A stretch of DNA of 64,000 bases. Origin: a virus (taxonomy: Duplodnaviria > Heunggongvirae > Uroviricota > Caudoviricetes). How positions within the stretch are numbered: position 1 is the stretch's first letter; each line of letters starts with the position of its first letter. The DNA is taken from positions 69,850 through 133,849 of the IMG/VR virus record IMGVR_UViG_3300014043_000003; one strand, given 5' to 3'. Shown here one piece after another: positions 34,649 to 63,962 of this stretch. The translations under genes and the position numbers were made by a program. The notes beneath the pieces are model-generated. The model had not been told where the DNA came from. It was given only the letters and a program-made list of their open reading frames with translations, and ran no database searches.

Positions 34649-34996
34649 TCAGTAGAGGACCTTGCCGTCGTATTTGTACCCCGTAAGCGTTTCCCAGGTG
34701 ACGCCCTTCTCCAGGCAGTCTTTATATACTGTCTCGGCTTTGTCAGGGTCCCGGTACTCCGAAGGGGCTTCCCACTCCGACATGAGGTTATGGTGTACAA
34801 GGAAGTATTTCAGCGCATACTTGCGGCATTTGCAGGAGATGAACAAATCTCGGATTTCTCCGAACTTGATTCGTCCGTTTTCTTCTGCGTATGGGCCAAA
34901 GTCAACGCCATTCAGAAAGCCGCTCTGCAGGAGATCAGCAACAGCCTTGTCTACCTGCGGGCCATCCATTCCGTGATATAAGCCTTTATTATTCAT
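34649..34996 (-). CDS. Small partner (putative immunity) of 34993-38058
   Basis: Start MNNKG overlaps the stop of the upstream gene (ATGAATAA). Confidence 0.55.
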   Translation of the reverse strand: MNNKGLYHGMDGPQVDKAVADLLQSGFLNGVDFGPYAEENGRIKFGEIRDLFISCKCRKYALKYFLVHHNLMSEWEAPSEYRDPDKAETVYKDCLEKGVTWETLTGYKYDGKVLY

Positions 34997-37900
34997 ACTT
35001 CCACGTTCCTCCACAGCCATTCGTTGTAGGCCTCTTCGAGTCCTTTTGCAACGCTCGGGACCATGCTCTTCAACAGCTCCAGGCCATACGTGCTGCGCAT
35101 GACGCGCAACTGGTGATAATGCGCAACGGCTTCTTTCGCCGGGGCATCCATCGCCGCATAATAGTCTCGCGTGTGAAAGCCTTCTATCCAGGCGCCTTCA
35201 CCACGCATCATGCCGCAGAGTATATCAGAGACCGTGCCCACAACAGAGTCACGTTCTGCAACTCTCTTGTAGTAGGCTTCCGTCTCCCTCTCATACTCTT
35301 CTCTATGCGTTTCCATGGCCTTATCTCTTCGGTCAAAGAACTCCTGATTCTTTCTGTGGTACTCTTCTTCGGCGCCCTTAAACTTTTCCCTTGTGCGCTC
35401 CAGCTTACGCTTGGGCGTGATATAGTACTCGAAGTAGTCATCCCACTTCGGGCGCTCAGATTCCAGAGGACAGTCGATGGACTTCATAAAGTCCTCGTAC
35501 TCTTTATCTCTGTATCTGAATTCGAAGAATCGCTTGCTGACAGCTTTCCCCATGTAGTAGGAGATAGACATGTCTGTAGATCCATCGACATACTCGCCGC
35601 GGGATTCGTCCCACACACGGATCATAGATCCATCGACAGACTCAAGGCGGAATTTGCCGGGATACTCGGCGTCTATCAGGTTTTGGAGATCAGCGGCAGC
35701 GGACTCACTGTGCATCGTCTTATCTGAGACTATGGCGTGTGAAAGGGAATCCTTATACACGTTCCCCAAAATTCTGGTATTACCAGATGAGCAGCCGCTT
35801 TTCTCTGCATCATCAAGGTAATGACCATATTCGTGCCAGAGTACCCTTGGATCGTCCATATCCTCGCTGTGGAGAGTCATACAGCCAGTGCCAGGAGTGT
35901 ACCAGGATCTTGACCCGTTCGGTGTCAATTGGCCGTGGCTGTCTACTATATTAGCGCCTCCGAAGGTTTTTCGCAACAGTGAAATCTCGGCATCCGAGGC
36001 ATTGCGAATGACATCCATCGCTTTCTGGCGCTGCTCCTCATTCATGTCGCCCCATCCGGAGCGCGAGAGGACTTCCTTTTCGATATTGGATCGCTCTTCC
36101 TGAGAGAAGATCTTTACCTTGTCGATATCGCCATTGCTCGCCATCTTGCGGAGGTCCTTCTTGGATCTCTGGTAATCCTGTTCGGCCTTGCGCATGGCCT
36201 TATCCGCATCATCAACTCTCTTCTGAGCCGCTTTTACCTTTTCCTCGGTAAAGGCATTGGGGCCGTAGCAATCGTCATGTACGGCAGCAGCGTAATCGAC
36301 CTGATTCTTCCGGGCTTCCAGCTCGGTAAACTTGGCCTTCTCTTCTTCGCTCAGAGCTGTGATTGGGCGATTGTTTTTGAGCTTGTCCATCTTGATCTGA
36401 AGATCATCGGACTCTCTCAGCATTTTATCTTTGTCGCCTTCACCATAACCAAGGTTTTCAATGAAACGCTTTGAGCTTTCTGATCTGCGGAAACCGCGCC
36501 GCTGTTTTGATAGGGCCTTATCGGCCTCCATCTTCTCATCGACCGCTTTCTCGTGAGCTTCGCCCAAATCATCACAACGCTTTGCTGCATCCCGGATTTC
36601 CTTGGATTTACGGGAGACGCGGGAATGCAAAACCTCTTCCGGCGTTTTTGGGTTTTTCCCTTCGCCACGCATTGTAGCAAGAACGTGGGGATTTCCCTTA
36701 TCCGGGACGCCCTCTTCGTTGAGATGGACCTTATGGTCATTCTCCGTCGTTACCCAGCGGCCCTCTTCCTGCTGTGCTTTTGCATCCAGTCTACTTTGAC
36801 GGCGTCGTCTGTAGGCTTCGATTGCAGCCGCTTGATCTTCTGCCGCGCTATCTGCCGAATCGGATCTTCCCTTACTTTGGCGGCGGCGTGCCGGAGTGAA
36901 TGTATAGGTAAAGCCATACTTCTCGGCGTTCTCCTTCATGAACCTGTCATGAGGTTCAACCTCAATGCGGCGCTGCTCCTTCTTGAGCTTTTCCTTGTAT
37001 AAGGCTTCCAGCGCGTCATAATCCGTGGTGGCAAGCCAATCCCGGAGAGAATCAAGGGACTCGCCCCGGTCCTTCCGCTGTACGAACTCATGAGATATGG
37101 CATTCATGCGCTGGCGCTCTTCGCAGTTTTCGAGGTTCTTCCTCGCCTTCTGCAAGATCTCGAAGCCGCTGACGTCATTGGGGCAGGCTTTCTCATACGC
37201 TTCGCGCATGGCGTACCAGCCCTCATACTGCTCCTTCGTACCATATTTGGCATTCACAAGGGAATATTCGCCCTCTGGGCTCGCAACAACGATCTCCCTT
37301 GCTCCATATCCAAAATCGGAGAGATCATCGGCGGAGAAGGTGCCACCGTCCGGGTGATTGTGTATGGACACATTGCCGGGCAAGTGTTCGCGCTTCTGGC
37401 CTACGGTGGACTTGACCTCGTGCCTGTCCCCTTTTTCTTCCACCACGACATTTCCGTCTCCATCGACGATCCTGTACTGCTCTTTCTTCAGGTTTGCCGT
37501 TTTGCGGATAATGCCACTCAGGGTTTTGGCCTGGGCCTCGGTCCTCTTATACGGTGATGGTGTAGATGCAGCCGGCTTTTTGGAGGAGACTTTGCCCGTC
37601 TCTTTGAGTTCCCTGTATACGGAGCCCACATCATAGCCCTTCTTGGCAAGTGCATCCCACGCATCCCTTGGACTCCACTTCGGATTGACCTTGATTCCCT
37701 CTCTTTGACAAAGACCAAAGGGGATCTTGGTGTTGCCGTGGCGTCCGCCGGAAGGCCTCTGTTCAGCTTCCTCCTCGGCATCGGCCCTGCGTTTCTTGCG
37801 GCGCTCCATATACCGGATCACATCATCGGTGGGGTACTGGACCTGCTTCTCTCCCATGTTGGAGTCAAGCTCCCCGGCAAAGAAGGCGCTGTCCGCATTC

Positions 37901-62965: not shown

Positions 62966-63271
62966 TCACTTTTTCGCTTGCTGCAGCTCCTTGATCTTCT
63001 TGTTGCAGTATGCGACAAAGGGGCTGTTGCCAACGGTGGATTTGATGTACTCCCAATCCTGGACGTTCATCTTGCTCTCCACCTGCTTCTGGAGATCGTC
63101 GAAGTCTTTGGCATCGTCTGCATCCGGATCGTAGTACTGGCTGCTGTAGTAGGTGTACCGAAGGTATTCCTTGCACTCCTTGGAAGGAGCGTTCTCATAT
63201 TCGCGCTTCCAGGCGGGATTCTTCATGTACCGCTGGAAGGCCTCATCCATTTTCTTTTTATCAACGGCCAT
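62966..63271 (-). CDS. Partner (putative immunity/inhibitor) of 63261-63962
   Basis: True start MAVDKKK overlaps the upstream stop (ATGGCCGTTGA). Confidence 0.65.
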   Translation of the reverse strand: MAVDKKKMDEAFQRYMKNPAWKREYENAPSKECKEYLRYTYYSSQYYDPDADDAKDFDDLQKQVESKMNVQDWEYIKSTVGNSPFVAYCNKKIKELQQAKK

Positions 63272-63962
63272 CCTTGTTGCTCCCTTCTCCCTGGATTGGA
63301 TTGGTCGTCTCGTCCCAGAGATCGTTTTTCCACAGTTTGCCGGTCTTGGCATCGTAGATGGAGTGCTGATTGTGCTCAATGCAGAAGCGCTTGGCGTGCT
63401 GGTAGTCCTTGCAGTTGAAGGAGATCTCCGGATTCCCGAAGAACCCGATATACACGTCGTCTGATCCAAGCTCGTGCTTGGTCACGGCGGCCATCATGGC
63501 GTAGGTCTCGTCATCATAGGCGCCGTACTCATTGCCTATCTTATGGTTTTGGTGGAAGGTGACGCAGTACCCGTCCTTGACATCGACAAGCTCTCCAGTT
63601 GTCGCGCTGTAGGTCCCGGCCTCGGCATCAGGATTGTTCTGACGGAAGTTCTTGACCTTCTGCATGGCGTCAGCATACTTCTTCGCATCGGCCCGGATCT
63701 GCTTTTCCGCCTCCGGGTGCGCCTTCAAGTATGCCTCGATGTGCTTCTTGGACTCCTTTGGACCATTGACCTTGATATCTGCCTTGGTCATCTGCTCGGC
63801 AGATTTGGTCCCGGCGCTGCCACCGTTCTTGGGCGCAAAGCGTCCGAGCTTATCATGCTTGTCGTTGATGTCGTACCGTTTGCCGCAGCATTTGGCACCT
63901 CTTGCACCCAGCCTTGCATCTACTCTTGCATGATACCTGCGAACAGCGTCTTTGTCAATCAT
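63261..63962 (-). CDS. Leader-bearing protein with C-terminal SAM-lyase-like domain
   Basis: AVRRYHARVDARL...RYD..HDKLGRF leader; GY.VTF...G.F..PEIS..CKD...A......NQHSIYD. Confidence 0.55.
   Translation of the reverse strand: MIDKDAVRRYHARVDARLGARGAKCCGKRYDINDKHDKLGRFAPKNGGSAGTKSAEQMTKADIKVNGPKESKKHIEAYLKAHPEAEKQIRADAKKYADAMQKVKNFRQNNPDAEAGTYSATTGELVDVKDGYCVTFHQNHKIGNEYGAYDDETYAMMAAVTKHELGSDDVYIGFFGNPEISFNCKDYQHAKRFCIEHNQHSIYDAKTGKLWKNDLWDETTNPIQGEGSNKDGR

Follow-up and report, generated by a model that had tools for sequence, protein, structure and literature searches.

Phages are already known to send proteins into their heads by way of N-terminal elements. [quoted passage not shown] 2022). 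Iyer, Burroughs, Anand, de Souza and Aravind (2017; PMC5512222) described the polyvalent proteins of phages and conjugative elements, which are encoded beside portal and terminase genes and whose packaging is predicted.

The window analysed here is a 64,000-nucleotide stretch of the 159,102-bp genome of an uncultured phage. Ten of its minus-strand genes, at 35-64 kb, carry recurrent modules A, B and C that occur nowhere else in the genome; these front unrelated, partly toxin-like enzymes, and the genes lie among those for DNA packaging and the head. The modules most likely represent an undescribed tag that would load proteins into the capsid and mark a cut site, so that the tag is new and the strategy is not. 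As with the T4 CTS, proteins that are unrelated beyond it and whose genes lie with those of the head share a short N-terminal element; the motif that closes this element, a candidate protease site, recurs in capsid and scaffold proteins, and the cargo includes candidate host-modifying enzymes. The two systems nevertheless share no sequence similarity: the T4 element is a 10-residue peptide with L/I-x-E, whereas here a ~20-residue Arg-rich helix with R-Φ-D-A is followed, after the junction, by a second folded module (B or C), the head has a DUF1073 portal, DUF2213 and a DUF2184 capsid protein, and targeting and cleavage are predicted. In P1 several cargo proteins are loaded together, as is proposed here, but a sequence relation to the Dar proteins was not found, the head family differs, and P1 cargo is anti-restriction and comes without partner genes. 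Jamet et al. reportedly described, in 2017, MuF polymorphic toxins of temperate phages; here too RelA/SpoT-like and zeta-like toxin domains are tied to the head module with small candidate immunity genes behind them, but MuF is without a toxin and the toxins are without a MuF domain, having another N-terminal leader instead. Compared with polyvalent proteins, the repertoire overlaps (zeta, RelA/SpoT, ADP-ribosyltransferase, NUDIX and zincin peptidases), and the gene at 34993-38058 and the relatives P0001 and P0149 encode true multi-effector fusions. In contrast to them, most effectors here are separate genes, each with its own leader copy and often its own partner, and no Pfam LPD or other polyvalent-associated domain was matched; word searches of PMC5512222 returned neither the leader modules nor the junction motif.

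Leader modules and their relatives

Module A is an Arg-rich helix (YRxRRxxRL; net charge +2 to +10), module B a well-folded, highly conserved three-helix bundle (GHGNTxxPFGLC…WxPxDAWxAL) in which certain His, Cys, Trp and Pro residues are invariant, and module C a small beta-meander (WxTTxNGHKxH). The leader runs from the amphipathic helix A through an R-Φ-D-A junction and an acidic, Asn/Gly-rich disordered linker to B, C or an H-x-x-x-x-G-R-F peptide, and the AF2 model shows a helix at residues 3-28 and a three-helix bundle at 54-99, with disorder between them (29-53). All coordinates given here and below refer to minus-strand features. In all-versus-all BLASTP of the window proteins, module B was common to 34993-38058, 40655-41560, 45638-49387 and 51844-52845 (pairwise E 1e-17 to 2e-28, 38-47% identity over 91-136 aa), module C to 34993-38058 (aa 420-541) and 41762-42565 (E 2.5e-14), and a degenerate A+B′ leader to the zeta and synthetase genes (E 1e-8), the zeta gene also being matched by an A+B profile (E 0.004). 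Module A alone gave weak pairwise values (E 0.002 to 0.7). A strict helix A motif, Y[RKHG].R[RVL]..RL, sought in the six-frame ORFs of the whole genome, occurred nine times, always on the minus strand, from 36813 to 63935 of the window and inside named genes; two additional degenerate copies were seen by eye, at aa ~80 of 34993-38058 and in 53975-55153. BLASTP paralogy and the confinement of motif A to one 29-kb stretch of one strand bear out the claim of an earlier note on this DNA that ten genes share leader modules. Its author's failure to recognise them as a named domain agrees with our searches, in which no model in Pfam, NCBIfam or PHROG matched A, B or C; nor was a DNA-binding fold recognised in the leader.

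The note had also proposed a leader HMM search for co-occurrence with heads. Our A+B profile found 410 protein clusters at E≤1e-3, with 182 at E≤1e-10 showing the same architecture. The leader is portable, as had been claimed: it is N-terminal in 132 of the 150 best relatives, and the parts that it precedes in 136 proteins fall into at least 36 unrelated groups, among which are ADP-ribosyltransferase, zeta kinase, alarmone synthetase, NUDIX and zincins (Pfam matches on leader relatives: ADPrib_exo_Tox, NUDIX, ADP-ribosyl cyclase, Zeta_toxin, HEPN, M90 and DUF3626). Leader genes map to the late strand within the head module in 19 of 20 loci with enough flanking DNA, the exception being L033 (L007 is too short and falls outside this count). 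All 18 IMG/VR loci, together with L006 and L032/L034, have one to four or more same-strand leader genes among those for terL, portal, MuF, DUF2213 and the major capsid protein (MCP); a B-only relative, P0128, adjoins a Sak recombinase without a clear head module around it. Many relatives have two A helices per polypeptide, and one is a covalent fusion of the form portal-NUDIX-'TDAEDDEDE'-B-ADP-ribosyltransferase. The phage head is of the Pbunavirus/Brigitvirus type and the hosts are probably Clostridia; leader genes are absent from Faecalibacterium phage FP_Brigit, the nearest cultured relative by capsid protein (54% identity).

Probable cargo genes and their small partners

The polyvalent-type gene at 34993-38058 (1021 aa; orthologues P0026 and those in L019 and L021) combines an A′+B leader, a JAB-like motif region (H-x-H…S-x-x-D, one residue short of canonical spacing), a second leader (A, R-L-D-A and C, aa ~409-470) and a zincin (HEYGH). 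Gene 38447-39646 (399 aa) joins an A+B′ leader to a zeta-toxin kinase domain (Pfam Zeta_toxin, 7.3e-25) that matches phrog_16619 'minor head protein' (3.8e-35); its leader heads a different ~545-aa ORF in L019 (aa 13-89 at 41%) and L021 (aa 17-61 at 89%), with nothing matching beyond the leader. The A+B gene at 40655-41560 (likely start M22) carries the first repeat units of the 1249-aa protein encoded by 45638-49387, in which an A+B leader precedes an array of small repeat domains and a DUF3626-like C-terminus (orthologues in 14 loci). In frame with the latter gene, and separated from it only by a TAA, is the leader-only ORF 49388-49582 with two A helices. A frameshift near 51805-51880 divides the zincin-like gene 51518-52845 (A+B leader, HEWTH) in two, giving ORFs 51844-52845 and 51518-51934, and ~435-aa relatives align with both frames (E 1e-97 to 1e-107). 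Gene 53975-55153 (392 aa) bears a degenerate A′+B′ leader and a RelA/SpoT-like small alarmone synthetase domain (aa ~200-390) that matches PDB 8vx3 'SaSAS' (E 1.6e-6), and it also matches positions 318-503 of the 504 in phrog_7625 'head morphogenesis' (E 2.6e-16). The remaining cargo genes are 55934-56557 (likely start ATG at 56509; helix A AVKRYRDRRAERL and a short module C, WITMKGTHVMV…GPDK; orthologues in L017 and L018) and 63261-63962 (233 aa; helix A AVRRYHARVDARL, R-Y-D and an HDKLGRF motif instead of B or C; an orthologue in L020 shares this leader). Of the C-terminal domains proposed in the earlier note, zeta and RelA/SpoT-like are thus backed by matches, and DUF3626 by matches in homologues of 45638-49387 only; neither the JAB-like nor the zincin part of 34993-38058 had a profile match, and a SAM lyase at 63261-63962 found no support in PDB or the structure atlas.

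Most cargo genes are accompanied by a small acidic partner gene, the acidity of the partners contrasting with the basic toxins, and the pairs form conserved cassettes whose synteny is kept even where they relocate. Similarity of the partners to known antitoxins was not found. The zincin half of 34993-38058 is followed by 34649-35020 (123 aa; homologue directly behind the zincin orthologue in L019 and L021), and the zeta gene by 38145-38396 (83 aa, acidic, pI 4.9), with a homologue behind the zeta orthologue in L006 (E 3.5e-14) and, in L032, a Zeta_toxin gene followed by an 83-aa gene. The partner of the 1249-aa gene is 45152-45583 (143 aa, very acidic, pI 4.5), which has homologues immediately behind the orthologous gene in L006 and L008-L018. 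Behind the synthetase lie two small genes at 53450-53941 (88 aa, pI 5.8, and 72 aa, pI 4.5) that are paralogues (E 1.5e-13) with a homologue behind the synthetase in L012, L014 and L016, and then an HD_4 hydrolase of the small-alarmone-hydrolase type (52991-53449; Pfam HD_4, 4e-10), found behind the synthetase in L012, L014-L018 and L025 even with the cassette after the portal. A candidate partner at 62966-63469, whose real start is probably internal (MAVDKK…), overlaps the end of 63261-63962 and has a homologue directly behind the cargo orthologue in L020. The count of seven small genes directly behind ten cargo genes had been one too high: 51518-51934 is rejected as a partner, being the frameshifted end of the zincin as relatives spanning both frames show, and the real one is 51243-51518 (91 aa, acidic, pI 4.7; homologue directly behind the zincin orthologue in L017, L018 and L022). 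Exactly three perfect sigma-70 promoters (TTGACA-17-TATAAT) occur in the 64 kb, against none in 100 shuffles, and two of them precede partners: 38401-38429, upstream of the zeta partner, and 53940-53968, immediately before the first of the small genes behind the synthetase. The third (42584-42612) is upstream of 41762-42565, and an 11/12 promoter lies at 45570-45599, by the partner of the 1249-aa gene.

Head genes and the conserved junction

Among the cargo genes are those for the large terminase subunit (49612-50901; Pfam Terminase_6N and Terminase_6C) and, at 55181-55897, a probable small subunit, which is assigned from position only; ~4 kb of cargo cassettes separate the two, and its homologue is directly upstream of terL in L008, L012 and L015. 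The portal (42638-44959; Phage_portal_3, 7.6e-73) has a C-terminal NUDIX domain (1.6e-12) behind a Gly/Pro-rich linker, a fusion of cargo to portal also present in L006. The conserved head-module gene 41762-42565 (267 aa, 37 orthologues, AF2 mean pLDDT 90) encodes a helical hairpin, module C (three short strands, aa 63-84), a long helix and a beta-rich C-terminal domain matching a BFVD 'minor capsid protein' (E 1.9e-9); it had been taken to carry a leader, and module C is indeed there, but helix A is absent. MuF, a minor head protein (39663-40658; Pfam Phage_Mu_F, aa 210-311 of 331), has no fused toxin, as previously noted. The description of the leader family as MuF-independent is presumptive: 40655-41560 abuts MuF, its end overlapping the MuF start by 4 nt, and an orthologue is directly upstream of MuF in L009, L012, L016, L019 and L021, so MuF could still be the receptor. 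Further along are the DUF2213 (Pa193_gp24) head protein (32121-33728; Pfam 8e-31), with an N-terminal domain, L-N-L-D-S at aa 169-173, a very acidic middle (overall net charge -67) and N-M-D-S near the C-terminus, and the MCP (30494-31558; Pfam Major_capside, 1.4e-58). An HNH-like gene is also located within the head/cargo module.

The end of helix A is formed by an almost invariant R-Φ-D-A-acidic junction: upstream of B we counted R 72 and K 7 times, then [MLF], D in 79 of 79, A 56 and E 16 times, and four acidic positions. Internal junctions of polyvalent relatives retain it without helix A. The same motif is found in head proteins, as R-F-D-S at the capsid propeptide boundary of this clade's MCP (31430-31441, before the conserved N-arm; kept in L006 and L022) and as L-N-Φ-D-S/G after the DUF2213 domain. 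Within 18 kb of PB1 there are exactly three copies of A-M-D-S, one each in the MCP (62-65), the portal and gp22; the last of these proteins is a homologue of the DUF2213 protein annotated 'head maturation protease', and protease activity of DUF2213, based on this RefSeq annotation, is putative. The capsid models of E217 and Pa193 start at residue 66 (PMC10329688, PMC11456595), and the Pa193 authors label the DUF2213 homologue a putative scaffold. Because the motif recurs at the capsid propeptide boundary and after the DUF2213 domain, the junction may be a prohead-protease site, as in the T4 CTS; Φ-D-A/S is short, and the capsid/scaffold match could be coincidence. The junction, its capsid/scaffold counterpart and the portal-NUDIX fusion are new beyond the earlier note.

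Readings of the leader

We favour, at a probability of about 0.6, a capsid-cargo family whose N-terminal leader would be processed and whose members would be ejected, with the partners as neutralisers. Portal fusions and the matches of the zeta and synthetase domains to minor head and head morphogenesis PHROGs support a probable physical link to the capsid interior. The short, Arg-rich helix A and its weak pairwise scores might suggest that the modules look alike by accident, or through the biased composition of basic low-complexity N-termini; this reading is highly improbable and is refuted by the significant BLASTP paralogy of B and C, the restriction of the motif to one region and strand, and the 182 database clusters. 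An unlikely but weightier alternative is that these are internal or ejection proteins whose shared N-terminal region is a permanent functional module (e.g. for DNA binding or oligomerisation) rather than a removable tag, acting not in loading but at ejection, by taking cargo out along with the genome end, or inside the host. Helix A resembles nucleic-acid-binding arginine-rich motifs and could equally bind nucleic acid, module B is well folded with invariant residues beyond the needs of a simple tag, leader-only ORFs exist, and the MuF-coupled gene 40655-41560 belongs to the conserved core. A DNA-binding fold was not recognised, however, and the best conserved part is the junction, whose retention at internal joints lacking helix A better fits a processing or recognition site.

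It is rather doubtful that the products are not virion parts at all, the genes being toxin-antitoxin or host-takeover cassettes gathered at permissive insertion points between head genes, with a common N-terminal domain put to some other use, such as regulating, binding the partner or positioning the protein within the infected cell. In favour of this, the cassettes relocate as units and the partners have promoters of their own; the zeta gene with its small partner and the synthetase with its HD hydrolase resemble classical toxin-antitoxin pairs, an HNH-like gene is in the module, and one B-only relative is near recombination genes. Against this stand the head-module, late-strand setting in 19 of 20 loci, the covalent portal-NUDIX-B-ADP-ribosyltransferase fusion, the matches of the same toxin domain types to head PHROGs, and the presence of the leader on large repeat proteins that do not look toxic.

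If the capsid-cargo reading holds, basic helix A would dock during procapsid assembly, with the strongly acidic DUF2213 scaffold, MuF or the portal as its receptor, and late-expressed enzymes would be enclosed in the head. The head maturation protease would then cut the leader at Φ-D|A/S, the motif common to the capsid propeptide boundary and the scaffold, freeing the cargo and separating polyvalent fusions into units, which would exit with the DNA and act in the cell infected next. Small acidic genes that follow toxin-like cargoes would be cognate neutralisers, two of which (and a third with the 11/12 promoter) could be transcribed from strong promoters of their own without relying on the late operon. 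A point against this reading is the existence of leader-only products, from 49388-49582 and, at 81-127 aa, in databases, which suggest that the leader may act in its own right.

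Leader modules among the packaging and head genes

The window spans bases 69850-133849 of an IMG/VR virus record of 159,102 bp with a completeness of about 93%, and all its genes between 30 and 64 kb lie on the minus strand. The head module comprises the large terminase (terL, 49612-50901), a Phage_portal_3-family portal that has NUDIX as its own C-terminal domain (42638-44959), MuF (39663-40658, 331 aa), a DUF2213/Pa193_gp24 protein (32121-33728) and a DUF2184-type major capsid protein (MCP, 30494-31558), all assigned using Pfam. Judged by its capsid protein, the closest cultured phage is Faecalibacterium phage FP_Brigit (54% identity), and the Pseudomonas Pbunavirus phages PB1, E217 and Pa193 have the same Pfam head families. 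The gene at 55181-55897 probably encodes the small terminase, and the synthetase and zincin cassettes lie between it and terL (51934-55181), unlike in relatives, where the small and large terminase genes adjoin.

The leader modules that the earlier note had read in this region (A is here described as an Arg-rich helix, B as a three-helix bundle and C as a beta-meander) proved to be genuinely shared in an all-versus-all BLASTP of the window proteins: B is common to four genes (E 1e-17 to 2e-28) and C to two (E 2.5e-14), and the zeta and synthetase genes have a more degenerate leader in common (E 1e-8). Across the whole genome, translated in six frames, a strict helix-A motif turns up nine times, always inside one of the genes named here (window 36813-63935). 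All on the minus strand, the leader-bearing genes have A plus B (40655-41560, 45638-49387 and 51844-52845), A' plus B followed by A plus C (34993-38058), A plus B' (38447-39646 and 53975-55153), A plus C' (55934-56557), A plus an HDKLGRF peptide (63261-63962), A plus A only (49388-49582) or C without A (41762-42565).

Two reading frames appear split. The 64-aa ORF with the double helix A (49388-49582) is in frame with the 1249-aa cargo gene and separated from it solely by a TAA at 49388-49390, and in several relatives both A helices are in a single polypeptide. The segment 51518-51934, previously taken as a separate partner gene, is instead the out-of-frame C-terminus of the zincin gene, since the ~435-aa protein of relatives aligns with frame 2 as far as ~51880 and with frame 1 starting at ~51805 (frameshift within 51805-51880). 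Recoding of a stop codon could in principle join such halves, and was rejected for both: the stop at 49388 is TAA, with no suppressor among the 11 window tRNAs, and the zincin split is a true change of frame, which may stem from a sequencing error, mark a pseudogene or be programmed.

Structure, size and distribution of the leader family

In an AF2 model based on a 91-sequence alignment, residues 3-28 form a helix, 29-53 are disordered and 54-99, which make up module B, are modelled confidently as a three-helix bundle. Modules A, B and C had no matches among Pfam, NCBIfam and PHROG models, at permissive thresholds too, with none to Pfam for module B even at E<=10. No solved structure resembling the bundle was found, either with its profile against PDB sequences, where the best match was a CW_7-like repeat at E 0.014, or with Foldseek using the AF2 model (nothing below E 1). 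Assignment of module B as a HeH/SAP/Rho-N DNA-binding domain, prompted by two Ish1 matches among relatives, was unsupported. Module C forms three short strands between helices in the AF2 model of the 41762-42565 product, whose C-terminal domain (pLDDT 90) matched a 'minor capsid protein' in BFVD (E 1.9e-9). This was the only specific match, as Foldseek searches of the fold against the PDB and VIA-wide yielded generic helical hairpins only.

Orthologues of 41762-42565 have 'YFRxVNGxxIKF' or 'HPRDESGRF' in place of module C, so the second element of the leader appears to come in alternative forms: B, C or the GRF peptide. At window 63819-63953 and in the related locus L017 (1140-1766 and 17884-18555), an H-(P/D)-x-x-x-x-G-R-F peptide substitutes for B or C after helix A, or for C in an orthologue of 41762-42565. 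This peptide may represent a third kind of element at cargo junctions, and perhaps one with a wider distribution.

A profile of the A plus B alignment, searched against 1.84 billion representative proteins, recovered 410 proteins (clusters) at E<=1e-3, and 182 at E<=1e-10. Of the 150 best matches, 132 have a leader that begins no later than residue 30; helix A is mostly found at residues 7-10 and is frequently duplicated. Behind it, 136 proteins fall into at least 36 unrelated C-terminal groups, most of these domains without a Pfam family and the rest including ADP-ribosyltransferase, NUDIX, ADP-ribosyl cyclase, zeta toxin, HEPN, peptidase M90 and DUF3626. Moreover, in two related loci, L019 and L021, a ~545-aa ORF other than zeta begins with the zeta-type leader (41% and 89% identity, respectively, over the aligned stretch), and the alignment ends with the leader. 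Within the clade, one leader variant thus precedes different cargo, and the portability proposed earlier for this family is borne out. The largest cargo group that is absent from the window (relatives P0003, P0005 and P0028) consists of the leader, a coiled coil and a C-terminal domain in which a 'GGDKT(K/R)GSCASLA…H' motif is conserved, suggesting a papain-like cysteine peptidase.

Co-occurrence with head genes, as the earlier note had anticipated, was observed at all 18 IMG/VR loci recovered with the profile, each with leader genes, numbering one to four or more, interspersed with the terL, portal, MuF, DUF2213 and MCP genes on the same strand, and in the same placement in locus L006 and a Clostridia MAG contig (L032/L034); locus L007 was left out of the count as its sequence is too short. 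All these loci belong to a single phage clade with very strong portal matches. The exception is the B-only relative P0128, encoded near a Sak recombinase and not within a clear head module. Just two Clostridia MAG contigs contained the leader in a search of 185,579 species genomes, and it is therefore not a common prophage feature. Nor was it found in any cultured phage: zero matches to 40655-41560 and 41762-42565 were obtained with tblastn against 50,697 phage records. FP_Brigit has head genes in common with the window phage, yet a profile search of its head-module proteins revealed no leader.

Ties to head proteins extend to fusions. In a Clostridia MAG contig (JAJQAK010000185.1; L032 8001-12863), the portal is a 1620-aa protein in which NUDIX is followed by '…HTDAEDDEDE…', module B and an ADP-ribosyltransferase. 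The C-terminal residues 529-765 of the Pa193 portal are without density (PMC11456595). The zeta and synthetase domains, for their part, have PHROG matches that carry the annotations 'minor head protein' and 'head morphogenesis'. In L032, the fusion is separated from MuF by about 24 kb of additional cargo genes, among them two more for ADP-ribosyltransferases.

The leader junction and a candidate maturation-protease site

The top 150 proteins contain 114 copies of module B, of which 79 are preceded by an [RK]-x-D-x tetrapeptide at most 75 residues upstream. The consensus of these 79 is RRxxR(L)…(A/S)-R-[M/L/F]-D-A-[D/E/P] (R in 72/79, D in 79/79 and A in 56/79), after which come four acidic positions and a linker rich in Asn and Gly. 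Distant members retain Φ-D-A-acidic with an altered helix ('RDRMIRRIMHMDADDD'), and the junction is also kept at internal joints of polyvalent relatives without helix A. The motif recurs in the head proteins themselves: R-F-D-S is ~30 residues into the MCP of the window phage and of loci L006 and L022, directly before the conserved N-arm, and four relatives that were aligned have L-N-[L/M/I]-D-[S/G] after the DUF2213 domain. In PB1 (L027 1112-8366), A-M-D-S is found exactly three times in the 18-kb six-frame translation, in the capsid protein (62-65), the portal (74-77) and gp22 (398-401), the DUF2213 homologue annotated as 'head maturation protease'. Cryo-EM models of the E217 and Pa193 capsid proteins start at residue 66, which both studies suggest might be due to cleavage (PMC10329688, PMC11456595). 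The PB1 MCP copy sits just ahead of this first modelled residue, and A-M-D-S is a candidate maturation cleavage motif in Pbunavirus.

Φ-D-A/S in the leaders, at the MCP N-terminus and in the DUF2213 protein, together with the parallels in PB1, E217 and Pa193, led us to propose it as a maturation-protease site. The protease would cut after the D of Φ-D-A/S, and helix A would be a removable propeptide, possibly docked electrostatically on the scaffold given their contrasting net charges (-67 for the scaffold versus +2 to +10 for helix A). In its full form, this tentative proposal, to which we assign a probability of roughly one in three, is that R-Φ-D-A/S, cut after D, is the recognition site of the DUF2213-type head maturation protease in a large phage group (Pbunavirus, Brigitvirus and the window clade), and that helix A plus this site make up a plug-and-play signal for loading and cutting. 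If so, any protein placed behind them would end up inside the procapsid and then be set free as cargo. Such a signal would explain rapid swapping of toxin and anti-defence cassettes, and phages would have a second way, distinct from that of T4, to load proteins into their heads. The motif can be checked in the cultivable relatives sharing head genes (PB1, E217 and Pa193) and, should it hold, the tag could also serve to package foreign proteins in such heads.

Cargo enzymes, their partners and known systems

Pfam confirmed the zeta cargo (Zeta_toxin, 7e-25) and NUDIX, and a PDB match the RelA/SpoT-like synthetase fold, but the JAB and SAM-lyase assignments of the earlier note remain motif readings, with zero Pfam, PDB-sequence or atlas matches. 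Its description of MuF as free of toxin holds, since nothing follows the Phage_Mu_F domain (aa 210-311) and no cargo gene matches this domain. Independence of the family from MuF is at most a possibility, given that the A plus B gene 40655-41560 belongs to the conserved core and overlaps, at its end, the start of MuF.

Homologues of the partner genes follow their own cargo in relatives, even where the cassette has been relocated. In 12 loci the 143-aa gene comes after the 1249-aa cargo; downstream of zeta, the 83-aa gene is conserved and matches no Pfam family; and the 123-aa and 91-aa genes form conserved pairs with the zincin and the second zincin, respectively. Zeta-epsilon toxin-antitoxin systems pair a zeta kinase with an adjoining small antitoxin of the epsilon family. 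A small protein and/or an HD hydrolase comes after the synthetase, in a cassette located before the small terminase gene in some phages and after the portal in others, and linkage of the synthetase to an adjoining HD_4-domain putative alarmone hydrolase is kept in seven loci. Toxin-antitoxin pairs of the toxSAS-SAH type consist of a RelA/SpoT-like toxic small alarmone synthetase and an adjoining HD-domain alarmone hydrolase antitoxin, a gene arrangement that the window pair shares. Six of the seven partner proteins are acidic (pI 4.5-5.4; the 88-aa partner has pI 5.8), whereas basic pI values of 9.3-9.5 were obtained for the zeta, synthetase and zincin cargoes. Perfect TTGACA-17-TATAAT promoters number exactly three in the window versus none in 100 shuffles: two are directly before partner genes (38401-38429, zeta partner; 53940-53968, first small gene after the synthetase) and one is before 41762-42565 (42584-42612), all on the minus strand. 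An 11/12 site precedes the 143-aa partner. This pattern fits putative neutralisers made independently of the late operon.

As among T4-type internal head proteins, several otherwise unrelated proteins whose genes accompany the head genes share one short element at the N-terminus. The logic is that of the T4 capsid-targeting sequence (CTS), a 10-residue propeptide processed by gp21 with an L-I-E-like cleavage logo (PMC9026906), of the P1 DarB signal (PMC9024508) and of the SPN3US ejection-protein propeptides (PMC7411985). The leader consensus, xAVxxYRxRRxxRL…R-Φ-D-A-acidic, has no similarity to the CTS or to the gp21 L/I-x-E motif. The cargo repertoire resembles that of polyvalent proteins (PMC5512222) and MuF toxins. 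Polyvalent proteins of phages and conjugative elements combine at least two effector domains in one polypeptide, with zincin MPTase, ADP-ribosyltransferase, zeta, RelA/SpoT, NUDIX and LPD domains as hallmarks. Of these, zeta, NUDIX and synthetase occur in the window and ADP-ribosyltransferase in relatives, with no matches to LPD models; relative P0149 combines portal, NUDIX and ADP-ribosyltransferase (Pfam), most window cargoes are single-effector, and the polyvalent likeness of 34993-38058 comes from HxH and HExxH motifs, its enzyme parts having no profile matches. MuF polymorphic toxins are MuF-toxin fusions, unlike the window phage MuF, which lacks a C-terminal toxin, and have a cognate immunity gene immediately downstream of them. 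What differs from these systems is the tag itself, its bipartite build and the candidate cut after D in Φ-D-A tied to a DUF2213-type head, and a polyvalent arsenal broken into separately tagged genes with partners.

To our knowledge, cargo-loading signals are known only for T4, P1, N4 and the phiKZ group. Phage-delivered proteins act ahead of any phage gene expression, hence their importance for counter-defence and host takeover. The leader provides a defined, searchable mark (410 protein clusters) of probable capsid cargo in a clade of uncultured gut/rumen phages, and a cargo catalogue that includes zeta kinase, alarmone synthetase, ADP-ribosyltransferases, NUDIX and peptidases.

Other genes border or interrupt this region. 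Between the last cargo cassette and the DUF2213 gene, a 211-aa Cys-rich ORF (33860-34495; no Pfam match at E<=0.01) has a '…DRIDNDGNY…NCRW' segment resembling HNH/AP2-type homing endonucleases. An array of 11 tRNA genes, none for a suppressor (58160-62463; Gly, Ser, Trp, Asn, Leu, Glu x2, Tyr, Gln, Thr x2), separates the first leader gene from two ParB_N-like paralogues (47% identical, E 9e-38) and a GNAT acetyltransferase gene, located upstream of the packaging genes at 56529-58013.
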